The notes below the pieces were generated by a model. That model had not been told where the DNA came from. It ran no database searches and was given only the letters and a program-made list of their open reading frames with translations. From contig CAVURA010000014.1 in the NCBI GenBank assembly GCA_963743775.1, positions 129,758-193,757 of the forward strand: DNA of 64,000 bases, in the 5' to 3' direction. This document shows, piece by piece, positions 8,674 through 34,253 of this stretch. Position 1 is the first letter of the stretch; the number at the start of each line of letters is the position of its first letter. A program made the position numbers and the translations under genes. The DNA comes from an uncultured Bacteroidales bacterium. Its GTDB lineage: Bacteria; Bacteroidota; Bacteroidia; Bacteroidales; VadinHA17.

Positions 8674-10236
8674 ATGAAAAGAATCCTTCTTCCCGTTTTC
8701 ATGTTTTTAATCGCAGCCGGAGTATCAGCCCAGCACAACAAGGTTGTTGACCGCATCATTGAGTTGGGTCAGACTGATAACCACACGATGCAGCATCTTG
8801 ATGTCCTCACAAACCGTTTCGGCGGAAGGCTGGTTGGGTCCGATGCCTACGACAATGCCGCTGAGTGGTGTGCATCAGAGTTTAAAAAATGGGGTATGGA
8901 AGTGATTATGGATGAAGCCGGAACTGTTCCTGTAGGTTTCAATCGCGGTCCATGGTTCGGAAGGATGCTTTCAGACAACGGAATGATACTGCATTTTGCT
9001 ACCCCGTCATATACATCCGGAACCAAAGGTGTTCAACGTGGTCCTGTGCTGATCGAGCCTAAAAGCAAGGAGGAGTTTAGCAAAATGAAGGGAGCGCTTA
9101 AGGGTGCCTGGGTACTGATAGGAGGTAAAAGCAACGGATGGCCCATCGACAGGTCTCTTAAGGCTGATTCCGCCAGGGTAAGAATCATTGCAGAGAATGA
9201 CTCCATCTCAAAACTGAACCGCGAGATCATGAGAGAAAACTACACCAATCGTGATAAACCCCCGAAAGATCTGATCCCAATGCATGAAGAACCTGCGCTC
9301 TTTTACCGCGAGATGCGCGATGCAGGTATACTTGGTATCATTCAAAAAGCCTCCGTGCCAATTACGGCTCTCTATGACCGCAAGAACCTTGATAGTTTGA
9401 CTTTTGAAACTCTGCCGACAGTATGTGATATCAAGCTCGATGAGAAGCAGTATGCAGTCATTGAGGAGATGGCAAAGGAGAGACAGTATTTTCTGCTGGA
9501 ATTTGACATTCGCAATCACTTTAAACCCGGCCCTGTCAAATATCACAATGTCATAGGAGTTATCCGCGGCACCAGGTACCCTGATGAATATGTGATGATG
9601 GGCGGCCACCTCGATGCCTTTGATGTTGCCACAGGCGGCGTTGATGACGGCTCAGGAGCCACACCTATGATGGAGGCGGCACGACTGATAATGGCGGCGG
9701 GAGGGAAGCCTGAACGTACAATTATGGTATGCTTATGGGCCGGTGAAGAGTTTGGGCTTATCGGATCAAAACATTGGGTGGAGAGTAATATGGAAAAGTT
9801 GCCGGGGATCTCAGACTATGTCAATCGTGACGGAGGACCCACTCCAATCACAGGAATCACAGTCCCCGAGGCTATGTACGATGATTTTGAAAAGGTGTGC
9901 AAGCCACTCAACAGTATTAATCCCGATTTCCCCTTCACTCTGAAGAAAAGAACAGAGCCGGCACGACCAAGACCTGTCAATGCGGGAGGATCAGATCACG
10001 CCTATTTCGCAAAGAATGGTGTTCCTGCCCTGCGGTTTGACGAACCTGACATCAAGGGGTACAACTTCGATTACGGTGAAATATGGCATTCAGAACGTGA
10101 TACCTATGATAAAAGCATCACTGAATACCAGGAGCATGCCGCAGTTGTCACCGCCGTGATAGTATACGGACTTGCAAACCTTGATCATCTGCTCTCGAGA
10201 GACAATCTCTACGCTGACGAGAATCATTTGAAGTAA
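8674..10236 (+). CDS. M28-family aminopeptidase (secreted)
   Basis: Signal peptide. Metal-site motifs GGHLDAFDVATGGVDDGSG and WAGEEFGLIGSKHW, plus a later DH/H region. Confidence 0.8.
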   Translation: MKRILLPVFMFLIAAGVSAQHNKVVDRIIELGQTDNHTMQHLDVLTNRFGGRLVGSDAYDNAAEWCASEFKKWGMEVIMDEAGTVPVGFNRGPWFGRMLSDNGMILHFATPSYTSGTKGVQRGPVLIEPKSKEEFSKMKGALKGAWVLIGGKSNGWPIDRSLKADSARVRIIAENDSISKLNREIMRENYTNRDKPPKDLIPMHEEPALFYREMRDAGILGIIQKASVPITALYDRKNLDSLTFETLPTVCDIKLDEKQYAVIEEMAKERQYFLLEFDIRNHFKPGPVKYHNVIGVIRGTRYPDEYVMMGGHLDAFDVATGGVDDGSGATPMMEAARLIMAAGGKPERTIMVCLWAGEEFGLIGSKHWVESNMEKLPGISDYVNRDGGPTPITGITVPEAMYDDFEKVCKPLNSINPDFPFTLKKRTEPARPRPVNAGGSDHAYFAKNGVPALRFDEPDIKGYNFDYGEIWHSERDTYDKSITEYQEHAAVVTAVIVYGLANLDHLLSRDNLYADENHLK

Positions 10237-23850: not shown

Positions 23851-24277
23851 TTAGTGCCCTGTACTCTTTGAGTAGTTCAATCCCATCAGGTCAAACCGCT
23901 CCGTCAACCCTGGGAGCCTGGTATTGAAATTCTCCCAGTTTCTGCTCTCCGGTACTGACCACAGCACTTCCGACAAGGCAGTCAGGCGGGGATATTTTTT
24001 AATTTCAATCCGCCATCCCTGGTCATCAACAAGATGCCAGTGAAAGACATTCATCTTATGCATGGCGAGGATATCGATATATCTTTTTATGAAGTCTACA
24101 TCAAAAAAGTGCCGGCTGACATCGAGGTGCATGCCTCTCCAGGCAAACCTCGGGTAGTCTGTCACTGCATGCGTGGAAGAAAACGCTCAATGCCAGAATG
24201 GGAAGAATTGGATTTGTCTTCATAGATCTTAAATCGGTATTCCTTGTCCTTAAAATCAAGCCTATTGGTGCAGAAGC
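23851..24277 (-). pseudogene. Remnant of a GH20 beta-N-acetylhexosaminidase
   Basis: The 104-aa ORF has the start of the GH20 catalytic barrel (PRFAWRGMHLDVSRHFF...FHWHLVDDQGWRIEIKKYPRLT). It then joins directly to a C-terminal ALSEVLWS segment, so the roughly 250-aa core with the catalytic D-E is missing. Upstream sequence (24170-24277) carries GH20b-like residues in another frame and is closed by a stop. Confidence 0.7.
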
Positions 24278-25615
24278 TCAATTAATCACCTCAATATCAA
24301 ATATTTCGTGCCTATCGAACTGCAGCCAGTATTTTATTGAATTCTGCCTGACAAGCTCCCAGTAAATGTCAGAGTCAAGACCGTTGACGAAGTTGATCTC
24401 TTTCAGCTCGGAAGAGACTTTCTCTGCAAGTTCTTTTTTCAGGGTGATGCGGATTGTTTTGCCCTTGTGTGTAAAATCAGCTGCGGGGAAGAAAGGTGTT
24501 TCAGTGCTGACAGTAAGCAGTCCGTGACCGGGTGTGGCTCCGGTACTTACCTGTACGCCATCGTTCATGCAGCTGAGGGGCGGGACGCTGCCGGCATGGG
24601 AGGTCACGCTCATCTCATCAACGCCGGTGCAGAAATATTCACGGGCACGGATACCCATCTTTACGCCTATGATGGCAAAGACACCGAGGTGCCTGTGAAG
24701 CTCATTGGCAATAACTCCGGAAGTCCACTCATCTTCACCGTATTTGTTGCGAATCTCCGTCACATTTCGCTGCAGGTCAGTCATATAAAAGGATGTGTCT
24801 GCCGGCATGGTTTTTATTACCTGCATCTTCCTGATTGTCTCGCCTTTTAGGATCGTTACGGTTGCCTGTCTCAATTCAGAGAGGTCAGCCGGGTACCAGT
24901 AACTGTTTTTACCGTCTGCCGGTGAGGCGGTGAACAGTGAAGGAAAGTGCAGCAGTAAAGGCACCATATCATCATAGGCAGTGAAGACAAATGAGTGTGC
25001 AGTCCTGGCTTTGATAAGACTGTACACTGTTTGGGCATACGGTGTTTTTATCTCACTTATTTCACCGAGAAGAGCATCATCATAAAATGCTTCACCTCCC
25101 CTTCCTGTAACGCTCACGGGCAGGGGTCCATTAAGTACTTCCTCAACAGCCTCGGGAGCTGTCTTGAAGTTAAACCCCTCTTCACCGGGGAGGCTCTCAT
25201 TACTCCAGATTATCCGTTTTACTTTTGTTGTGAACGACGGAACTCCCTCCATTGCTTCTGCTGCCGTTTTCAGCGACCCCAGGGCAATAAACGTCACCGG
25301 TGATGTCTCTCCGTTAAGGCGCTCTTCGATGAGACTTATAGCTTCTGGGCCGTATGCCATGGGAAGTCCCTCATGCCAAAGGCTGTCGAGCATGGTCCTG
25401 ACCATTTTGTATGCCTCGGGTGATTTATGAAATCCGTCAGACACTGTGATTGCAAGTATCCTTACATCGGGTGAGGCCAGCAGCAGACAAATCGCTTTCC
25501 GGTCATCAACCCCTCCGTCGGTGTCAATGATGACATAATGTCTTGGTTTCCACGGATGTGCGGAAAGGGATGCAAGTATAAACAAAAGTATAAAAGCAAA
25601 TGTTGCTCTTTTCAT
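24278..25615 (-). CDS. Secreted fusion: nucleoside hydrolase (IUNH)-like domain plus FmdE-like domain
   Basis: Starts at the ATG at 25615 (MKRATFAFILLFILASLSA signal). IIDTDGGVDD matches the IUNH DxDxxxDD motif. The C-terminal SCMNDGVQVSTGATPGHGLL matches the FmdE CxxD(A/G)xQxxTGxTxGxGNL pattern. Confidence 0.6.
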   Translation of the reverse strand: MKRATFAFILLFILASLSAHPWKPRHYVIIDTDGGVDDRKAICLLLASPDVRILAITVSDGFHKSPEAYKMVRTMLDSLWHEGLPMAYGPEAISLIEERLNGETSPVTFIALGSLKTAAEAMEGVPSFTTKVKRIIWSNESLPGEEGFNFKTAPEAVEEVLNGPLPVSVTGRGGEAFYDDALLGEISEIKTPYAQTVYSLIKARTAHSFVFTAYDDMVPLLLHFPSLFTASPADGKNSYWYPADLSELRQATVTILKGETIRKMQVIKTMPADTSFYMTDLQRNVTEIRNKYGEDEWTSGVIANELHRHLGVFAIIGVKMGIRAREYFCTGVDEMSVTSHAGSVPPLSCMNDGVQVSTGATPGHGLLTVSTETPFFPAADFTHKGKTIRITLKKELAEKVSSELKEINFVNGLDSDIYWELVRQNSIKYWLQFDRHEIFDIEVIN

Positions 25616-25629
25616 CTGATACGTTTTTC

Positions 25630-25637
25630 CAAATGTA
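25630..25637 (-). promoter_or_regulatory. Candidate -7 box (TACATTTG)
   Basis: Exact TAnnTTTG 15 nt upstream of the ATG at 25615. This supports the shorter start. Confidence 0.35.
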
Positions 25638-25748
25638 ATAATTAAACTGTTTCCGGAGACTGAAAGGCATATTACATGCCGCAATCCGACCTGAAGAGAG
25701 ATTTCATCAATCTTTTTTTATTATCTTGACCACAGCAATTTTTAATAT

Positions 25749-27203
25749 GTGAAGAAAAGGATTTGGTTGTGTTTTATAGCCGGTCTGGCTGCCGGTGCTA
25801 TAATTTTACTTGGCATGGGGAAGGCAGTGGAAGCCACATCAACAAATGATTATTGTGCGTCATGTCACGTTCACCCGCAGGCTACAACAAGCTGGAAGCA
25901 GGGGGTTCACTATGCCACGAAGTCAGGCTACAGGGTCTCTTGTACCGAATGCCACCTTCCGCCAAAAGGTGAGGGTTATCTTATTGAAAAAGCGAAGACG
26001 GGTTCACGCGATATATGGAGCCACTGGACTAAAGACTCAACGGAGTACGACTGGGAAGCCGCCTCGACACTCGAGAGGGCTTCGAAACACGTTTATAATT
26101 CAACTTGTTTAAAATGCCACGAGAACCTTTTCCCGGCTGCCCTGACGCGTGAGGGGTCAGATGCCCATCTCTATTACAAGCAGATGACAGAAAAAGGAGA
26201 AGATATGCAGTGTATCAGCTGTCATCTGAATGCGGGTCACTACCTCAAGGATTACGTGCACGGCAGCAATAAGGGTTTCGGGCTGGCGCAAAAGCAGGCA
26301 GATACAATTTATACCCTTCCCGCCACCGTCACCTCATTCACTGATTTTACAGAGCAGGTGCCCGGGTCGGGTGTGACATTCCGCATGATCGCCCTGCCCG
26401 GAGGTGCCTTTACCATGGGAAGTCCTGAGAGCGAACCGTTGCGTAACCCTGATGAGGCTCAGCGCAATGTCACCATAGACTCATTCTTCATCGCCGAAGT
26501 TGAAGTGACATGGGATGAGTACATGGAGTTCTACAGGCAGACAGCATCTGAAGGGAGGTCGACGGATACTGAGGGATCGCGTCTTAAGAAGGAGGATGTT
26601 GATGCCGTCACCGGGGCTACTCCGCCGTACGGCAAGCCTGACCAGAACTGGGGAATGGGACAGAGACCGGCTATATCGATGAGCTATCATGCAGCTGAAA
26701 CATATTGCCGGTGGCTAAGCCTGGTTACAGGCAGGCGATACCGCCTTCCTACAGAAGCTGAGTGGGAGTATGCATGCAGGGCAGGCACAGAGACACCTTA
26801 TTTCTTTGAAGGTGACCCCTCGAGGTTCGAGAAAAAGGGTTTATTTGGAAACAAAGCCGATACTGCAGTCATAAGCACTTATGTCATCTACAGGGGCAAC
26901 AGCCAGTCAAGGACACAGGAGCCGGAAGCCGTGCAAGCCAATCCGTGGGGACTGAAAAATATGAGTGGCAATGTCGCTGAGTTCTGCTCTGACATATATG
27001 AGGGAACAACAGAACATGTCATCAGGGGAGGGTCATACCGTGACGGCGCTGCAGGTGTCAGAAGCGCTGCCCGTGACCGTACGCGCAGTGAAGCCTGGCT
27101 GAAGACTGATCCCCAGATGCCGAAGAGCGTCTGGTGGTATTCTGATTGTTTTTATGTGGGGTTCAGGGTAGTAATGGATAATGAATTAAAAATTAAGAAT
27201 TAA
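25749..27203 (+). CDS. Membrane-anchored NapC/NirT-type tetraheme cytochrome c fused to an FGE/SUMF1-fold domain
   Basis: GTG start. N-terminal TM helix. Four CxxCH motifs (CASCH, CTECH, CLKCH, CISCH) within residues 36-159. Residues from about 205 to 480 have SUMF1-family motifs (MIALPGGAFTMGS, WEYACRAG, NPWGLKNMSGNVAEF, IRGGSY, GFRVV). Confidence 0.8.
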   Translation: MKKRIWLCFIAGLAAGAIILLGMGKAVEATSTNDYCASCHVHPQATTSWKQGVHYATKSGYRVSCTECHLPPKGEGYLIEKAKTGSRDIWSHWTKDSTEYDWEAASTLERASKHVYNSTCLKCHENLFPAALTREGSDAHLYYKQMTEKGEDMQCISCHLNAGHYLKDYVHGSNKGFGLAQKQADTIYTLPATVTSFTDFTEQVPGSGVTFRMIALPGGAFTMGSPESEPLRNPDEAQRNVTIDSFFIAEVEVTWDEYMEFYRQTASEGRSTDTEGSRLKKEDVDAVTGATPPYGKPDQNWGMGQRPAISMSYHAAETYCRWLSLVTGRRYRLPTEAEWEYACRAGTETPYFFEGDPSRFEKKGLFGNKADTAVISTYVIYRGNSQSRTQEPEAVQANPWGLKNMSGNVAEFCSDIYEGTTEHVIRGGSYRDGAAGVRSAARDRTRSEAWLKTDPQMPKSVWWYSDCFYVGFRVVMDNELKIKN

Positions 27204-27225
27204 GAATTTGACTGACAGCATATTA

Positions 27226-27300
27226 CACCTTTCAACCTATCAACCCTTCAACCTATTGACCCTCAGACATCAGACCCTCAGACCAAACAACAGACAACAG
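27226..27300 (-). repeat. GGTTGA-unit repeat, inverted orientation (locus C)
   Basis: The plus strand reads caccttTCAACCtaTCAACCctTCAACCtatTGACCcTCAGACaTCAGACCcTCAGACC... The reverse complement shares the 14-mer ggttgaaaggtgta with locus A. Confidence 0.7.
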
Positions 27301-27314
27301 ATAATATAAAATTA

Positions 27315-27322
27315 TAACTTTG
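27315..27322 (+). promoter_or_regulatory. Candidate -7 box (TAACTTTG)
   Basis: Exact TAnnTTTG 20 nt upstream of the ATG at 27342. Confidence 0.35.
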
Positions 27323-27341
27323 ACACATACATAAACTAACC

Positions 27342-28667
27342 ATGAAAAAATCCGGTATTTCAAGAAGAAGTTTTCTGGGCACCGCTGCCGCTGCAGGTGC
27401 AGCTGGCATTGTTGTTCCCACACTACTCACATCATGCGCACCTAAACACAAGAATGTCGTACTCCCCGTCATGCTGGAAAAAGCACCTGACGGGCCGCTG
27501 CTTAAAGCAGGACTAATTGGCTGCGGCGGCAGGGGGACAGGCGCTGCGATTAATTTCATTCATGCCGGTCCGAACCTGACAATATCAGCACTGGGTGATG
27601 TGTTTACCGACAGGATTACCTCATGCCGTGAGCGCCTGGCAGAGGACGGCGTGCAGATAGCAGATGAGAATTGCTTTACGGGATTCGACGCATACCAGAA
27701 GGTCATTGAATCGGGTGTCGATATAATCATTCTCGCCACCCCTCCTGTGTTCCGGCCTGAACACGTCGAGGCTGCGGTGTCAGCCGGGAAACATGTCTTC
27801 ATGGAAAAGCCTGTCGCCGTTGATCCTGTCGGCGCAAGACAGATACTGGCTTCAGGTGAGAAGGCTAAGGGGATGGAGCTTTCAATTGTTACAGGCACCC
27901 AGAGACATCACCAGCATGATTACGTGGCTACCTGGGGCAAGATTCAGGAGGGAATGATCGGCGATATCGTATCAGCTAACTGCTACTGGAACCAGGGACA
28001 GCTCTGGTACCGTGAGCCAAACCCGTCATGGACGGAGATGGAATATATGATCCGCGACTGGGTCAACTGGAGCTGGCTTTCAGGTGATCATATCGTTGAG
28101 CAGCATGTTCATAATATTGACGTCATAAGCTGGTTCACCGGCAAGAGACCGGTCTCGGCAGTGTCATTCGGATCGCGCCAGCGCAGGCCCACCGGTGATC
28201 AGTACGACTTTTTCAGTACAGACTTTGTCTATGAGGGAGGCATCCATGTTCACAGCATGTGCCGCCAGATCAACGGCTGTGAAAGCAATGTGTCGGAATG
28301 GATTCAGGGGACTAAAGGCACCAGTAACTGCCAGAATACGGTATGGGACAAAGCGGGAACGCAGCTGTGGAAGTATGACGGTTACAAGCTTGACGAAGCG
28401 GGTAAGATGACAGAAGACCTGGCAATCAGTCCTTATGACCAGGAACATATAGATTTTGTTACCGCAATACGCACAGGCAAACCTCTCAACGAGGCAGAAT
28501 TTGTTGCCTACTCAACGATGGCGGGCATAATGGGCCGAGTCTCGGCATATACAGGCAAGCTGGTCACATGGGATGAGATGATGAACTCCGAACTGAAGCT
28601 TGGTCCGAAAGTGTATGCCATGGGCCCGGTGGATGTACCAAAAACAGTCCCGGTACCCGGCGAATAA
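27342..28667 (+). CDS. TAT-exported Gfo/Idh/MocA-family oxidoreductase
   Basis: Twin-arginine signal SRRSFLGTAAAAGAAG. Rossmann motif GLIGCGGRG. EKP motif (FMEKPVA). Confidence 0.85.
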   Translation: MKKSGISRRSFLGTAAAAGAAGIVVPTLLTSCAPKHKNVVLPVMLEKAPDGPLLKAGLIGCGGRGTGAAINFIHAGPNLTISALGDVFTDRITSCRERLAEDGVQIADENCFTGFDAYQKVIESGVDIIILATPPVFRPEHVEAAVSAGKHVFMEKPVAVDPVGARQILASGEKAKGMELSIVTGTQRHHQHDYVATWGKIQEGMIGDIVSANCYWNQGQLWYREPNPSWTEMEYMIRDWVNWSWLSGDHIVEQHVHNIDVISWFTGKRPVSAVSFGSRQRRPTGDQYDFFSTDFVYEGGIHVHSMCRQINGCESNVSEWIQGTKGTSNCQNTVWDKAGTQLWKYDGYKLDEAGKMTEDLAISPYDQEHIDFVTAIRTGKPLNEAEFVAYSTMAGIMGRVSAYTGKLVTWDEMMNSELKLGPKVYAMGPVDVPKTVPVPGE

Positions 28668-28682
28668 CATATAACAGTCATT

Positions 28683-29624
28683 ATGGAAAATAAACGATCA
28701 CGCCGCAGTTTTCTGACGGGCGCTGCTGCAACGGGTGCAGCACTCTTTGCTGCTCCTGCTCTTCTAAGGGGAAGCAGTATTGTATCCCGGGTGCCGGATC
28801 CGGATAAACCATTTACCCTTGGATATGCTCCTTCAATCGGCATGTTCCGCGAGCTGTGCGGCAGCGATGATGCAATCGACAATATTAAATTCATACACGA
28901 CAGGGGATTCCGGGCCGTCTTTGACAACGGCCTCCCGGGCCGCCCTCCGGCTGAGCAGGAGCGTATAGCCGCTGAATTGCAGCGACTGGGAATGATGATG
29001 GGACCATGGGTTCTCTATGCCGATTTTTCAAAGACCTCCTTCGTTCTTGATACTCAGGAAGTACGTGATTTCCTGAAGGCAAAGATGCAGGAGGGAGTTG
29101 ATATTGTACGTCGCACAGGTTTTAAAATGGCGCTCGTGGTGCCGGGACGGTATGATGAGAGGTTGCATCCTGACTACCAGCGGTCGAATGTGATTGACAA
29201 CCTTAAGTACTGCGCTGAGTTTGCCGAACCGGGGGGTATGACCATCGTCATTGAACCGCTGAACACGCTCAGTGATCATCCGGGTCTCTGGCTCACGCAG
29301 ATGCCACAGGCTTATCAGGTATGTGATGCTGTTAACAGTACTTCAGTCAAGATCGTGGAGGATCTGTACCACCAGCAAATCACCGAGGGAAACCTGATCC
29401 CGAACATCGAGGCATGCTGGGACCAGATAGCTGCTTTCCATGTGGGAGATAATCCCGGCCGCAATGAGCCTACAACAGGCGAGATCAATTTTAAGAACAT
29501 ATTCAAGTATCTCTATTCGCGTGATTATAAGGGTGTGATCTGTATGGAGCACGGCAGAAGTATCGAGGGTCCGGAAGGTATTAAGAGAGTGATAGAGGCA
29601 TACAGGGAATGCGATCCGTTCTGA
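28683..29624 (+). CDS. TAT-exported xylose-isomerase-like TIM-barrel protein (hydroxypyruvate-isomerase family)
   Basis: Twin-arginine signal SRRSFLTGAAATGAA. IEPLN, DLYHQQITEGNL, HVGDNPGRNEPTTGEINF and CMEHG motifs. Confidence 0.8.
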   Translation: MENKRSRRSFLTGAAATGAALFAAPALLRGSSIVSRVPDPDKPFTLGYAPSIGMFRELCGSDDAIDNIKFIHDRGFRAVFDNGLPGRPPAEQERIAAELQRLGMMMGPWVLYADFSKTSFVLDTQEVRDFLKAKMQEGVDIVRRTGFKMALVVPGRYDERLHPDYQRSNVIDNLKYCAEFAEPGGMTIVIEPLNTLSDHPGLWLTQMPQAYQVCDAVNSTSVKIVEDLYHQQITEGNLIPNIEACWDQIAAFHVGDNPGRNEPTTGEINFKNIFKYLYSRDYKGVICMEHGRSIEGPEGIKRVIEAYRECDPF

Positions 29625-31339
29625 CTGAACGTGGCAACACCATAAGCGATAAATGGATTAAGGCATCCATTATCGGAACGATATGGGCAGCTGCCGAGAT
29701 TGTTCTCGGCAGCTTTTTGCATAATCTCCGTGTTCCATTCAGCGGTAATGTTCTGACCGCCATCGCTCTTGTGATACTTATTTCTGTCAGTCATAAATGG
29801 CGCGAGCACGGGCTCTACTGGCGGGCCGGATTAATCTGCGCACTGATGAAAGCCATGTCGCCCAGCGCCATCATTTTCGGACCGATGATCGCCATCATTG
29901 CAGAATCATTGCTGCTTGAAGCCTCAGTGAGACTGTTCGGCAGAACATTCATCGGCTTCATCATCGGATCGATGCTGGCAATGTCATGGAACCTTTTCCA
30001 GAAAATCCTTAACCTGGTCATTTTTTACGGAGGCAAGCTCGTCGACCTGTATTCGAGCCTGACCGATTATGTTGCACGTGAGCTGAATCTTAGGTTTGAT
30101 GCTTTCTGGGCACCGCTGATTCTGCTGGTGACGCTTTATGCAGTGTTCGGCGCAGCGGCAGCCATTGTCGGCATCAGAACAGGACGCAGGATCGTTTCCC
30201 GTCCTGCCGGGGCAGTATTGCAGGAAAAGCCCGCAGCGCCGCCCTCCGGGGCACGTTTAGAAAAGCCGTTTAATTATTCGGTTATCTGGCTTGCAATTGA
30301 TATTCTGCTTGTAGCCGGTGCACTGGTGATTGTCAGCCAGGCTAAATGGATTTACTGGATCATAACGGTGATCCCTGTGACAACATTACTGGCTGTGCGC
30401 TACAAGCGTGCCATGAGACAGCTTGGCAAACCCGGATTCTGGATCACGTTCGTTGTCATTACAATGCTGTCAGCTATGGCGTTTACCGCGTTCCAGCCGG
30501 GAAGCAATAATATTGCCAATGGAGTACTGATAGGCGTGCAGATGAATTTCCGCGCATTGATCATCATCGTCGGTTTCTCCGCCCTCGGTACAGAATTGTA
30601 CAATCCTGTGATCCGCGAACTGTTCAGCAAAACACATTTCAGACAACTGCCCCTGGCGCTTGAACTCTCTGCCGAAAGCCTTCCCTCAATGATTGCGGCG
30701 ATGCCTGACCTAAAGACCGCCATTAAAGACCCGGCATCGATACTCAGCAGCATGATAGCGCAGGTTGAGAGACGGCTGAGCGAGGCCAGGGCCGAACAGA
30801 AGACAATGCAGAAGGTTTACATACTTACCGGTGAGGCAGGCGAAGGCAAAACGAGCTTACTGCAGAAACTGACGGTAGTATTGAAAGAAAAAGGGATCAT
30901 GGCGGGAGGCATCCTTGCGCCGCGGATTATGGAAGGGGAGATGACCACGGGCTATGACGTACTCGATATTATTTCTGGTATAAGAGCTCCGTTTCTCCGG
31001 CTGACAAATGCGGAAATCAGGGGGGTGGAGAGGTTCACCCGGATAGAGGCAGGGTATCAGGCAGGACTTAAAGCTCTTGACCCTGACAATAACAGAGACA
31101 GTCACGTGATTGTAATTGACGAGGCGGGTCCGCTGGAGCTCAGGGGTGAAGGCTGGGCCGGACGGATAAGCGAAATATTGAAAACAAATGAATGGCAGAT
31201 TATTCTTGTCGTCAGAAAAAGTCTTGTCACCGAGGTTATCCGAAAATTCGGCATAAAGGATCCTGCGATTTACGTGGTCGGCCCGGGTGATTACAACAAA
31301 CTATTAAATGAGGTCATTAAAACAGGCGGAAATGGATGA
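29609..31339 (+). CDS. Fusion of a multi-TM membrane domain with a C-terminal P-loop NTPase (THEP1/DUF2478-like)
   Basis: About 8 predicted TM helices in residues 1-390. Then Walker A GEAGEGKTS and Walker B VIVIDEAGPLE. Overlaps the upstream gene by 16 nt and the downstream gene by 8 nt. Confidence 0.55.
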   Translation: MRSVLTERGNTISDKWIKASIIGTIWAAAEIVLGSFLHNLRVPFSGNVLTAIALVILISVSHKWREHGLYWRAGLICALMKAMSPSAIIFGPMIAIIAESLLLEASVRLFGRTFIGFIIGSMLAMSWNLFQKILNLVIFYGGKLVDLYSSLTDYVARELNLRFDAFWAPLILLVTLYAVFGAAAAIVGIRTGRRIVSRPAGAVLQEKPAAPPSGARLEKPFNYSVIWLAIDILLVAGALVIVSQAKWIYWIITVIPVTTLLAVRYKRAMRQLGKPGFWITFVVITMLSAMAFTAFQPGSNNIANGVLIGVQMNFRALIIIVGFSALGTELYNPVIRELFSKTHFRQLPLALELSAESLPSMIAAMPDLKTAIKDPASILSSMIAQVERRLSEARAEQKTMQKVYILTGEAGEGKTSLLQKLTVVLKEKGIMAGGILAPRIMEGEMTTGYDVLDIISGIRAPFLRLTNAEIRGVERFTRIEAGYQAGLKALDPDNNRDSHVIVIDEAGPLELRGEGWAGRISEILKTNEWQIILVVRKSLVTEVIRKFGIKDPAIYVVGPGDYNKLLNEVIKTGGNG

Positions 31340-32042
31340 GGTAATCAGAAAAGTCAGGCAGGAGCTGATGGATGCTTCGGATGAAAAGACAAGGAAGTCA
31401 GGAATGAGGTTTTTCAAAGAGGAGGTCACCCTCTACGGTGTGAAGTCAAAGACTGTGGGACAGATTGCGAAGGAAAATTTTGCTGCAATTAAAAACAAGC
31501 CCAAGTCAGAGATTTTTAAATATTGTGATGCCCTGTGGCAGTCAGGTTATCTTGAAGAATCGTTCATTGCTTGTGAGTGGTCACACAAACTGAATAAGCA
31601 ATACACGCCGGAAGATTTTCGCGTCTTCGAAAAATGGGTTCACAGATACCTGAATAACTGGGCCTCATGCGACACTCTGTGCAATCACACTGTCGGAGAT
31701 TGTGTTCAGATGTATCCCGACCACCTCTCTGACCTGAAGAAGTGGGCTTTATCAGATAACAGATGGGTACGGCGTGCATCTGCAGTGTCGCTGATTGTGC
31801 CTGCCCGTCACGGAAAATTCCTGCCGGATATTTTTGAGATTGCAGAGATACTCTTACTTGATACGGATGATATGGTGCAGAAGGGTTACGGCTGGATGTT
31901 AAAGGAAGCCAGCAAACCGTATCAGAAGGAGGTGTTTGATTTTGTCATGAAGAATAAAGCAGTCATGCCGCGAACGGCTCTGAGATATGCCATCGAGAAA
32001 ATGCCGCCCGAGCTGAAAATCAGGGCAATGGATAGAAAATAG
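31332..32042 (+). CDS. DNA alkylation repair protein (AlkD-like HEAT-repeat family)
   Basis: The ATG at 31332 overlaps the upstream stop (ATGGATGA). The helical repeat pattern with W..S.....W.RR...V and the GYGWMLKE segment are typical of this family. Confidence 0.65.
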   Translation: MDEVIRKVRQELMDASDEKTRKSGMRFFKEEVTLYGVKSKTVGQIAKENFAAIKNKPKSEIFKYCDALWQSGYLEESFIACEWSHKLNKQYTPEDFRVFEKWVHRYLNNWASCDTLCNHTVGDCVQMYPDHLSDLKKWALSDNRWVRRASAVSLIVPARHGKFLPDIFEIAEILLLDTDDMVQKGYGWMLKEASKPYQKEVFDFVMKNKAVMPRTALRYAIEKMPPELKIRAMDRK

Positions 32043-32053
32043 CATGCTGGCGA

Positions 32054-32090
32054 TCCCGCGGAGCGGGAGAGGCAGTCCCGCAAAGCGGGA
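32054..32090. repeat. Two copies of a 15-nt GC hairpin (TCCCGC-nnn-GCGGGA)
   Basis: TCCCGCggaGCGGGA at 32054-32068 and TCCCGCaaaGCGGGA at 32076-32090, between convergent genes. Confidence 0.75.
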
Positions 32091-32136
32091 TGGCATGGAA
32101 CATGGGGGAAGGCATTTATCACTTTCCGATCATTGT

Positions 32137-33675
32137 TTACCGGATATCCTTTGTTCTTTCCTCCCAAAAGTTGTTGAAGCTTGTAACAGGCTCTTCACAA
32201 AGAAATACCCCTGTGCCGTATTCCCGGGCGTCGGGGTCGGATATTCTTCCGACCAGGGTGATTTTGGCAAACAGCTCCTTCATATCTTCTCCGGGCTCAC
32301 CGTTTATATAGACCAGTGACTTAATCTCAACCGGAAACTCATGCGGGAACCAGTAACTGAAGCTCTCATTGAAGCTTACTGCCTCGGGCAATCCGTACTT
32401 TTTACCGATTATTGTTATTGCTCCTGCCTGTCCGTAATTTTCACAGTATATAAATGAAGCTTCTTTTTCTCCGATCATCTGGTATGCACTGTCGGCAAGG
32501 GCCGTGAGCTCTTCCCATCCGATCATATCAGCATAATCCTGCGGCAGTGAGTGAATGGTGCCATCCTCAAATCTTCTTCCCAGGTCAATCCCGTATTTTT
32601 CGTCAAGTACCTTAAAATAGACTTTCAGGCCCTCTTTATCCCATACAGGCAATCCGAATGGCACATTGGGAATTGTTATCAGAATCATGAAAAATGGCAG
32701 GACAATCCGTGTTATCCGGCTCCTGAGCCATGTATCAAACGCCGCACCTCCTGCGGCGATCATCATGGGGTAGATACCGAGTGTATAATAACCCTTCCCC
32801 TTCATGAATAAAAGGGCGGCAACGATTAAGATTGAAAGGAACCCAAGGAATCTGAGATTCTTCATCTTTGGGGAAAAGAGAAGGAAGATAAGACCTCCGA
32901 TTACCAATATTGACCCGGCAAAGGGACTGATTATCTGTTCAGTGAGGAAGGTGACGGCATCCATATGTACAAGTTGAGTATCATACAGCTCCGACATATG
33001 GTTAAAGACGGGGAAGCCCTTTGCTGCCTGCCAGAGCAGGTTCGGGAGAAAAATTAATCCTCCTGCAATTATGCCGAACCAAAAAGATCTGTTTCTGAAG
33101 ATATTCCGGTATTTTGTAAAGGGAATAACAACCAACAGCCCTGTAAATAAAAGTCCCGAGAGGTATTTGTTAAGCAGGGCGAATCCGGCAACTATTCCAA
33201 GAAAAATAAGAAACCTGTCCTTTCCGGTATTTATGAACTTAAGAATCAGCCATATGCAGAGAGTCCATAAGAATACTTCAATATGTACAGGCATAAACAG
33301 AAAATAAGTTCTCATGAAAAAGATGCTTACTGACAGGCCTGTCGCAGCGAGTATGGAGCTGTATCTTGTTCCTCCCAGTTCTCTGGCCATGGAAGCAACG
33401 ATGAAAATCATTACACCCCCGAGCAGGGCAGGAAAGAGTCTTACGGCAAAGAGGTTATTCCCAAAGATGTTCTGCATCAGCCAGCTTATCCATCCTATAA
33501 GCGGAGGAACACTGGCATAACCGAAAGCAGGATGATGACCAAGTGAAAAGTAAAGCAGTTCGTCGCGGTGGTATTCAAGGTTATCATATACAAGCAACCG
33601 CGCTGCTATGTTCAGCAGGGCTATTGCCAGAATAACAGGGTCAATCCTTTCAAAAATCTTTGTTTTTTGTTCCAT
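32137..33675 (-). CDS. ArnT/PMT-like (GT39/GT83) membrane glycosyltransferase
   Basis: More than 10 TM helices. N-terminal loop YHRDELLYFSLG... with the DE motif typical of GT-C enzymes. I prefer the ATG at 33675 to the GTG at 33681. Confidence 0.7.
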   Translation of the reverse strand: MEQKTKIFERIDPVILAIALLNIAARLLVYDNLEYHRDELLYFSLGHHPAFGYASVPPLIGWISWLMQNIFGNNLFAVRLFPALLGGVMIFIVASMARELGGTRYSSILAATGLSVSIFFMRTYFLFMPVHIEVFLWTLCIWLILKFINTGKDRFLIFLGIVAGFALLNKYLSGLLFTGLLVVIPFTKYRNIFRNRSFWFGIIAGGLIFLPNLLWQAAKGFPVFNHMSELYDTQLVHMDAVTFLTEQIISPFAGSILVIGGLIFLLFSPKMKNLRFLGFLSILIVAALLFMKGKGYYTLGIYPMMIAAGGAAFDTWLRSRITRIVLPFFMILITIPNVPFGLPVWDKEGLKVYFKVLDEKYGIDLGRRFEDGTIHSLPQDYADMIGWEELTALADSAYQMIGEKEASFIYCENYGQAGAITIIGKKYGLPEAVSFNESFSYWFPHEFPVEIKSLVYINGEPGEDMKELFAKITLVGRISDPDAREYGTGVFLCEEPVTSFNNFWEERTKDIR

Positions 33676-33680
33676 GCCCA

Positions 33681-34253
33681 CTATTGCCTTTCTATCCAGT
33701 CCTCAACAGAAATCACAGATGCATAACTCTTCATCGCAGCCAGGGTTGAGGCATGCACGTCAGCCGCGGTCACCTCGCGGTCACCGAATTTCAGGTTTCG
33801 TGACGCGCAGGCATCATGGAGCAGAAAAACATAATAGCCAAGATCACTGGCGGCACGCACTGCAGCCTCAACACACATCTGCGTCTGCATCCCGCAGATA
33901 ACAAGTGTGTCGACACCAAGACTCTGAATATGTTCAGCCAGTCCCGTGCCCAGAAAACTGTTGACCTCTTCCTTGACGAATATTGCTTCGCCCGGTGCGG
34001 GTTTGACCAGGTCATTTATTTCCATTCCTGCCGCCGACTTATGCTGGATGAAAATGACAGGGTTATTTTCTGTCCGGGCATGAGCTATCGCTATGGCAGC
34101 TTTTTCGGCTGCCTGAACCGGTTCCACAAGCTCAGACCGGCCCCCCGGAAAGTAAAAGTTTTGAATATCTATCACCAGCATTGCATAGTTCTTCTGTGCT
34201 TCCATCACAACGACTGTGCATATAAGAGCGATGAAGAGGATAATCTTTTTCAT
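33681..34253 (-). CDS. Isochorismatase-family cysteine hydrolase (with signal peptide)
   Basis: LVIDIQNFY, IQH and TLVICGMQTQMCVE (catalytic Cys) motifs. Confidence 0.8.
   Translation of the reverse strand: MKKIILFIALICTVVVMEAQKNYAMLVIDIQNFYFPGGRSELVEPVQAAEKAAIAIAHARTENNPVIFIQHKSAAGMEINDLVKPAPGEAIFVKEEVNSFLGTGLAEHIQSLGVDTLVICGMQTQMCVEAAVRAASDLGYYVFLLHDACASRNLKFGDREVTAADVHASTLAAMKSYASVISVEDWIERQ

Follow-up and report, generated by a model that had tools for sequence, protein, structure and literature searches.

A Tat-signalled Gfo/Idh/MocA dehydrogenase with a cytochrome-FGE-like fusion as its genomic partner: a candidate periplasmic oxidation module in an uncultured Bacteroidales bacterium

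GFOR of Zymomonas mobilis and the aldose-aldose oxidoreductase of Caulobacter are enzymes of Gfo/Idh/MocA fold that are exported by the twin-arginine translocation (Tat) pathway with their cofactor bound and act on periplasmic sugars in a ping-pong cycle, GFOR being re-oxidised with a second sugar and without a redox partner. A Tat-signalled Gfo/Idh/MocA dehydrogenase accompanied by a xylose-isomerase-like TIM barrel also oxidises sugars and brings about elimination in the BT2156-BT2159, LgdA/B/C (levoglucosan) and DgpA/B/C (C-glycoside) pathways (PMC8121099), which are redox-neutral overall and have no cytochrome; the Bacteroides thetaiotaomicron study postulated an unidentified second sugar for cofactor recycling (PMC8121099). 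Periplasmic oxidation of glycosides to 3-keto-glycosides that is cytochrome c-dependent has been described for ThuAB and for the glucoside 3-dehydrogenase LacABC with its cytochrome c subunit (PMC8121099), but LacA is a flavin adenine dinucleotide (FAD) enzyme of another fold and these systems have neither a NapC/NirT component nor one resembling the formylglycine-generating enzyme (FGE). How exported NAD(P)-dependent enzymes recycle their cofactor is the question on which the locus described here bears. It lies in a 64,000-nucleotide stretch of contig CAVURA010000014.1 (positions 129,758 to 193,757, forward strand) from an uncultured Bacteroidales bacterium of the VadinHA17 lineage, which we call the window and whose own numbering is used throughout. 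Its three genes, all on the + strand, encode a predicted membrane-anchored NapC/NirT-type tetrahaem cytochrome fused to a cysteine-less domain of FGE-sulfatase fold (P0001, 25749..27203, 484 aa), a Gfo/Idh/MocA NAD(P)-dependent dehydrogenase with a Tat signal at residues 1-32 that is probably lipid-anchored (P0002, 27342..28667, 441 aa), and a Tat-signalled xylose-isomerase-like TIM barrel of the Hyi/OtnI/YcjR-like branch (P0003, 28683..29624, 313 aa). The open reading frames (ORFs) of the two enzymes are both intact and are separated by 15 nt (28668-28682), which agrees with what an earlier note on this DNA, made from the sequence alone, had given for the two genes.

In contrast to GFOR, the dehydrogenase of this locus has a haem protein as its obligate genomic partner. 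We sampled 150 genomes evenly across the order, so that almost all belong to separate families. The full-length fusion (50-64% identity) was found in 19 genomes and an orthologue of the Gfo gene (E at most 1e-60) in exactly those 19, with neither gene occurring alone. The fusion gene is immediately upstream of the Gfo gene and on the same strand in 23/32 Gfo loci, and within 4 kb in three more; these loci comprise 31 collected ones and the window, one of them (L031) contains two Gfo genes, and their ORFs were called by a simple script, so that certain start sites are approximate. The six unlinked Gfo loci are either extra copies that exist beside a linked copy elsewhere in the genome or, in L004, a gene with an IS1595 transposase close upstream. 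The counts are given without a p-value, related genomes not being independent. The pairing of fusion and Gfo gene is nevertheless as strict as such data allow and, given that the two share the same 19/150 genomes and are neighbours in nearly every locus, it supports the view that dehydrogenase and membrane cytochrome are functionally linked. The association of the enzymes with the cytochrome that the earlier note had put forward therefore withstood the co-occurrence check for the dehydrogenase, relatives of P0003 being present in 11 of the 19 genomes.

[quoted passage not shown] Residues R8, R9, F11, G60, G62, R64, G67, E155, K156, P157, D249 and H257 are invariant in 47 Gfo orthologues; they include the glycines of the Rossmann motif (G60, G62, G67), the EKP motif and the catalytic Asp and His of the C-terminal domain. 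Sequence and Foldseek searches of solved structures returned generic family members alone, at no more than 47 bits and 20% identity; the Foldseek matches include the GFOR-type enzymes (1h6d, 1evj, 5a02), to which P0002 is 14-16% identical, and DgpA1 is a weak match (9m3d, 44 bits). The catalytic motifs of the dehydrogenase are thus invariant, as are the predicted metal ligands of the TIM barrel (E191, D227, H230 and E289, in 27 sequences of both TIM-barrel subfamilies discussed below), and for this reason both enzymes look active.

The twin-arginine signals that the earlier note had read on both proteins are upheld by profile matches and by their conservation. P0002 carries the motif SRRSFLG and scores 20.7 bits with TIGR01409 (cut-off 16.7), and 21.7 bits with PF10518, just under the cut-off of 22.7, while P0003 carries SRRSFLT and scores 18.2 bits with TIGR01409. 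The RRxF[LI] motif is kept in 33/33 Gfo orthologues, and the RR motif in 21/22 TIM-barrel relatives (13/14 of the P0003 type and 8/8 of a second subfamily) and in 4/4 accessory Gfo proteins. Since the motif is conserved across the orthologues of both enzymes, it is not a chance match, and Tat export of both is supported as a prediction. The Tat signal of P0002 ends in a lipobox, LTSC, with the cysteine at C32, a feature that the earlier note had missed and that GFOR-type enzymes do not share. As a lipobox cysteine follows the Tat signal in each of these 33 orthologues, P0002 is probably a Tat-exported lipoprotein.

The upstream gene is only in part what it had been taken for. Its N-terminal portion does belong with the NapC/NirT tetrahaem cytochromes, as proposed: it matches PF03264 (99.1 bits, cut-off 24.1), begins with a helix at residues 2-29 in the predicted model and has CxxCH motifs at residues 36, 65, 120 and 155, from which haem binding is predicted. 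Four such motifs are found in 24/26 fusion orthologues, and the other two are truncated at contig ends. The N-terminal helix and the four CxxCH motifs within about 165 residues are what it shares with NrfH, NapC, TorC, CymA and cytochrome cM552; NrfH (2j7a) is a weak match, and the protein falls below the NCBIfam models for napC_nirT (61 vs 311) and NrfH (70 vs 134) and fails the TorC model as well. The earlier note did not mention that this cytochrome is fused to a second domain, of FGE-sulfatase fold (PF03781, 128 bits), whereas the cytochromes just named are neither fused to an FGE-fold domain nor partnered with an NAD(P)-dependent dehydrogenase. The domain fits the fold, but we rejected it as a true formylglycine-generating enzyme because the copper-binding cysteine pair, which from human FGE we take to lie after the GGS[YF] strand, follows the RGGSY sequence in 0/26 orthologues. 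Two loci (L021 and L026) that seemed to have split, FGE-only genes upstream of Gfo were also discarded, as these genes are truncated by contig ends.

In order to follow this domain beyond the order, the fusion alignment was used to scan a wider set of genomes, one per species. The complete fusion with a NapC part is present in Bacteroidales, Prolixibacteraceae and Draconibacterium as well as in candidate division KSB1 and Acidobacteriota, and the Gfo gene adjoins the fusion in 8/9 further loci, the ninth ending at a contig edge; a phylum-level sample of 300 genomes, mostly of other classes, had yielded the fusion in one further genome only. Relatives of the FGE-like domain, with 35-44% identity, are found in Pedobacter sp. 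Hv1, Eudoraea adriatica, Chitinophagia, Saprospiraceae and Cytophagales, and also in Planctomycetota, Verrucomicrobiota, Acidobacteriota and Gemmatimonadota. These relatives have no NapC part; they carry Sec signals, and some of them are haem-less while the others have one or two PSCyt1 haem domains fused to them. A homologue of the Tat-signalled Gfo enzyme (38-47% identity) stands beside the FGE-like relative in 17/29 of these loci, and a P0003-type TIM barrel (45-48% identity) is adjacent in four of the 29. As an internal control, 0/40 loci of more distant, generic FGE-sulfatase proteins from the same scan have a Gfo neighbour. Since the other phyla keep the domain without the NapC haems, the real partner of the Gfo enzyme is the FGE-like domain and, given that this partner is the same where haems are absent or of the PSCyt1 type, cytochromes have been joined to the pair more than once.

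Sequence features of this domain suggest how a dehydrogenase and a cytochrome could be coupled. Residues 285-291 of the fusion read DAVTGAT (26601..26621, + strand), an exact match to the D-x-x-[ST]-G-A-[ST] consensus for covalent attachment of flavin mononucleotide (FMN) by ApbE, with T291 as the candidate FMN-carrying residue; the site is at the end of a loop (267-288) whose pLDDT is below 50 in the AlphaFold model. The aligned column in the 26 order-level orthologues is D-[AG]-[IV]-x-G-[AP]-T-P-P, in which D285, G289 and T291-P-P are near-invariant, and the haem-less and PSCyt1 relatives have D-A-[IV]-[ST]-[RHQ]-P-[ST]. Known ApbE-flavinylated proteins (NqrC, RnfG, NosR, PplA, DUF2271, DUF3570) share the seven-residue, threonine-ended motif on an exposed loop and convert two-electron into one-electron transfer outside the cytoplasm (PMC8238504, PMC12052999); the carrier fold of the fusion is not listed in those surveys, and it differs from them in that most of its members have Pro for Ala or Arg, His or Gln for Gly. 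Substitutions of G to A and of A to V leave about 50% flavinylation in a model protein (PMC12052999), so that the deviant motifs may still be flavinylated, although they are candidates only. The window has one other match to the consensus, DDGSGAT at 9643 (+) in an ORF at 8674-10236 (520 aa), which we take to be due to chance.

ApbE genes themselves accompany the relatives of the domain, being found in 13 loci of the FGE-like subfamily and in one NapC-fusion locus of Acidobacteriota, compared with 0/40 control loci. In three cases (L056, L059 and L067) the ApbE gene is directly 3′ of Gfo; FGE-like protein, Gfo and ApbE (PF02424, 239-259 bits) follow one another in Pedobacter sp. Hv1, in a Verrucomicrobiota metagenome-assembled genome (MAG) and in a Bryobacteraceae MAG. 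Within the ApbE loci the conserved D-A-[IV]-[ST]-x-P-[ST] site is on the FGE-like protein alone, and an ApbE-type attachment site was found in 0/47 Gfo sequences. In the Acidobacteriota MAG (L046) ApbE, NapC-FGE fusion and Gfo lie in a row; only three CxxCH motifs were seen in this fusion, and both ApbE and Gfo are split over several ORFs, likely by assembly errors. The earlier note had supposed that the dehydrogenase is re-oxidised through the cytochrome. The tie to the cytochrome is retained, but a direct step from NAD(P)H to haem is chemically awkward, and the clustering with ApbE together with the flavin-attachment-like motif suggests that a flavin stands between the two.

From these elements we propose a three-gene module for periplasmic oxidation with a flavin relay to haems and menaquinone, a reading to which we give slightly better than even chances. 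The Gfo enzyme would fold in the cytoplasm around NAD(P), be exported by Tat and anchored to lipid, and oxidise a sugar-like substrate in the periplasm; because free NAD(P) is unavailable there, the bound reduced cofactor must be re-oxidised in place. The FGE-like domain would dock on the dehydrogenase and present, on its flexible loop, an FMN attached covalently to T291 by ApbE. In a ping-pong cycle this tethered FMN would play the part of the second substrate: it would take up the hydride and release single electrons, which would pass through the four NapC/NirT haems to the menaquinone pool, while the TIM barrel, through its Glu-Asp-His-Glu metal site, would isomerise, epimerise or beta-eliminate the keto-sugar formed by the dehydrogenase. 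Transfer to menaquinone, at about -75 mV, from NAD(P)H, at about -320 mV, is energetically downhill, and within the NapC/NirT family cytochrome cM552 is an example of a protein through which electrons enter the quinone pool.

Several observations weigh against this proposal. The canonical [ST]GA[ST] ending is present in 8/26 orthologues, SGPT being the form in 16/26 and the remaining 2/26 having no Ser or Thr at position 4, and the very relatives that are linked to ApbE carry the non-canonical [ST]-[RHQ]-P-[ST]. What is conserved here could therefore have a structural or catalytic role in the subfamily and look like an ApbE motif in certain members only. ApbE is present in no Bacteroidales fusion locus, and the single ApbE gene of this genome lies on another contig and would be required for NQR/RNF anyway. 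That the pair can function without a fused cytochrome is evident from the haem-less relatives. Finally, neither enzyme reaches the cut-off of any curated family.

Alternatively, the FGE-like domain could itself be catalytic or handle substrate. It would resemble PvdO, which is required for a two-electron oxidation of dihydropyoverdine, and would oxidise an enediol-type product formed by the Gfo enzyme with the TIM barrel. In that case the haems would be there for this oxidation, and the cofactor of the Gfo enzyme would be recycled in a redox-neutral manner, ping-pong between two sugars. Among solved structures PvdO (5hha, 68 bits) is indeed closest to the domain, which bears the NCBIfam name dihydropyoverdine dehydrogenase, and many of its invariant residues are outside the motif, such as the WLKTDPQxPKSxWWYSD block. 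The existence of haem-less versions fits this idea as well, as does the accepted view of GFOR and BT2158, in which the bound cofactor is reduced by one sugar and re-oxidised by another (PMC8121099). It would, however, leave unexplained both the clustering of ApbE with the pair and the far tighter tie of the FGE-like gene to Gfo than to any TIM barrel, and we regard it as unlikely.

Neither more nor less probable, in our estimate, is that the Gfo protein is a redox-neutral enzyme which cleaves or isomerises glycosides in the style of GH109, GH4 or BT2158, the fusion merely rescuing or poising its cofactor without net respiratory flux. Tat-exported Gfo/Idh/MocA enzymes with a permanently bound cofactor are known, GFOR among them (PMC8121099), and 3-keto-glycoside routes typically include partners of the TIM-barrel and ThuA kinds. 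Yet a tetrahaem protein of the quinone pool in 19/19 genomes, with varied haem modules across phyla, is heavy equipment for a repair function, and no GH109 structure is among the sequence or fold matches listed for P0002. The curated equivalog models give no closer relation: P0002 scores 29 against a cut-off of 750 for BT_2158_fam (NF058561), 18.7 against 650 for BT_2159_fam, 34.9 against 650 for levoglucosan dehydrogenase (NF052479) and 65.1 against 355 for IolG (TIGR04380). Membership in a BT2157-2159-type pathway, with which the earlier note had compared the pair, is thereby not supported; the window also differs from the BT2156-2159, Lgd and Dgp pathways in having no DUF1080 hydrolase or reductase.

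Electrons might also run the other way, from menaquinol through haems and flavin to the bound NAD(P), which would make the Gfo enzyme the terminal reductase of a periplasmic keto compound in an anaerobic respiration. Most characterised NapC/NirT proteins (NrfH, NapC, TorC, CymA) are quinol dehydrogenases, and the carriers of the fusion are mainly Bacteroidales, Prolixibacteraceae, KSB1 and similar groups. The transfer from menaquinol to NAD(P) would nonetheless be uphill by about 250 mV, and relatives from aerobic groups, for example Pedobacter and Eudoraea, keep the pair without the quinol dehydrogenase module; this direction of flow is in our opinion quite improbable.

The spacer between the fusion and the Gfo gene (27204..27341, 138 nt) is rich in TCAACC/TCAGACC-like short repeats, and similar repeats are present elsewhere in the window. 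That the cytochrome gene is a mere neighbour and the two Tat enzymes form a separate operon with a promoter of their own could be argued from the length of this spacer and from TAACTTTG at 27315, a word resembling the Bacteroidetes -7 element (TAnnTTTG) 20 nt ahead of the Gfo start codon, but it is very improbable given the identical phyletic distribution of the two genes and their 23/32 adjacency over many families and several phyla, and given that the word occurs at chance frequency in the window and the spacer has no terminator. Neither a terminator-like hairpin nor a stable fold (z +1.2) was seen in the spacer, and the number of promoter and terminator sites predicted across 24000-32500 did not exceed that in shuffled sequence.

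The TIM barrel is a looser component. P0003 (PF01261, 97.9 bits, cut-off 31.1) shares the fold and the Glu-Asp-His-Glu site of Hyi, OtnI and the 3-keto-D-glucoside 4-epimerase YcjR, which are cytoplasmic, whereas P0003 has a Tat signal and is predicted to be periplasmic. Hyi (TIGR03234) is its best NCBIfam match, as the earlier note had anticipated, but at 120.3 bits it is far under the cut-off of 353.45; it is likewise under the cut-off for the 2-oxo-tetronate isomerase OtnI (NF043033, 103 vs 325). The best solved relatives are the Hyi-like 3ngf (66 bits), 6wn6 (44 bits) and 1k77 (43 bits), and YcjR is among them. In the order sample its relatives occur in 11/19 genomes with the module and in 0/131 of the others, and P0003-type genes follow Gfo on the same strand in 7 loci and converge with it in 4, whereas 2 further loci have them at another place. 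Another AP_endonuc_2 subfamily, also Tat-signalled, takes the place of the TIM barrel in 8 loci. The Gfo enzyme and the TIM barrel had been presented as a unit, and they do occur together, but the TIM barrel is missing from part of the genomes, sometimes convergent and replaceable; it is an interchangeable third component, and the conserved core is the fusion with the Gfo enzyme.

Other genes can stand in the same position. ThuA (PF06283) comes after Gfo in 4 loci, in 3 of which a second Tat-Gfo enzyme lies ahead of it, and ThuA with a second Gfo occupies the TIM-barrel place in the sister operons L023, L025, L030, L031 and L040; ThuA is absent from the window and was found in sister operons only. 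Three of the ThuA loci continue with a GT2 glycosyltransferase and a TPR protein, the latter recognised by a Pfam scan of L023. A GT2 glycosyltransferase and a protein of 650-690 aa follow the module in L023, L025, L030, L043 and L044, which are operons of the ThuA and Prolixibacteraceae types. L031 (G105:C33) is a composite cluster of 14 kb; besides ThuA, the fusion and a TIM barrel it contains two accessory Gfo genes and a pair of core Gfo genes, of which one is inverted. In a maximum-likelihood tree the Gfo proteins are grouped by partner type, with that of the window in the P0003-type clade, and the third gene therefore probably tracks the substrate or product of the dehydrogenase.

The variable neighbours of the core (TIM barrels, ThuA, second Gfo enzymes, lactonase, and a transporter of the major facilitator superfamily, MFS) provide a sugar context. 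By analogy with ThuAB, BT2156-2159 and the levoglucosan route, the ThuA and TIM-barrel partners point to 3-keto chemistry, and the presence of ThuA in sister operons supports 3-keto-glycoside chemistry; the elimination at a 3-keto-glycoside that the earlier note had named may thus apply here. In the nearest relatives of the window, however, the locus also includes a gene for a beta-propeller lactonase and, in some cases, one for a Nuc_H_symport-type MFS transporter, and the lactonase genes point to oxidation at C1 and count against 3-keto chemistry. In the genome studied here the lactonase and the Nuc_H_symport transporter have distant, unlinked homologues only.

In the window, five genes from 25749 to 32042 are all on one strand. 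The one that follows the TIM barrel (29609-31339, +) overlaps it by 16 nt and encodes a polytopic membrane domain with an NTPase_1 (THEP1-like) P-loop domain (PF03266, 76 bits). We considered it as a part of the module and rejected it, a counterpart being found in 0/31 other loci; it is probably outside the module. On the other side, and divergent from the cytochrome fusion, 24278-25684 (-) encodes a fusion of IU_nuc_hydro (nucleoside-hydrolase-like) and FmdE, which is also a neighbour in a relative of 81% identity (L005) and is missing from more distant loci. A PMT_2-type glycosyltransferase is located at 32137-33681 on the opposite strand.

Each component of the module is of a known kind and the combination is undescribed. 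The FGE fold is not known to carry a flavin. Full-text searches for NapC/NirT or ApbE with Gfo/Idh/MocA or FGE-sulfatase turned up nothing relevant, in line with the earlier note's view that the link is new, and two surveys of flavinylation-associated systems do not mention the Gfo/Idh/MocA and FGE-sulfatase folds. A more general proposal, for which we would put the chances a little short of even, is that these loci, from six phyla or more, represent a hitherto undescribed class of periplasmic dehydrogenases with a respiratory function, characterised by bound NAD(P), an FMN carried on an FGE fold and interchangeable haem modules. The module would be the NapC/NirT tetrahaem protein in the present case, whereas Verrucomicrobiota and Acidobacteriota would use PSCyt1 and aerobic Bacteroidota would rely on separate carriers. 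If this is true, thousands of genes named "formylglycine-generating enzyme family protein" or "inositol 2-dehydrogenase" across Bacteroidota, Planctomycetota, Verrucomicrobiota and Acidobacteriota would have to be re-annotated; cultured carriers include Pedobacter sp. Hv1, Eudoraea adriatica DSM 19308 and Tautonia sociabilis. The widespread FGE-sulfatase fold would gain a role as a flavin carrier. Since oxidation of the sugar outside the cytoplasm would feed the quinone pool, the bacteria concerned could conserve energy, in a manner new to science, from sugars that they do not take up.

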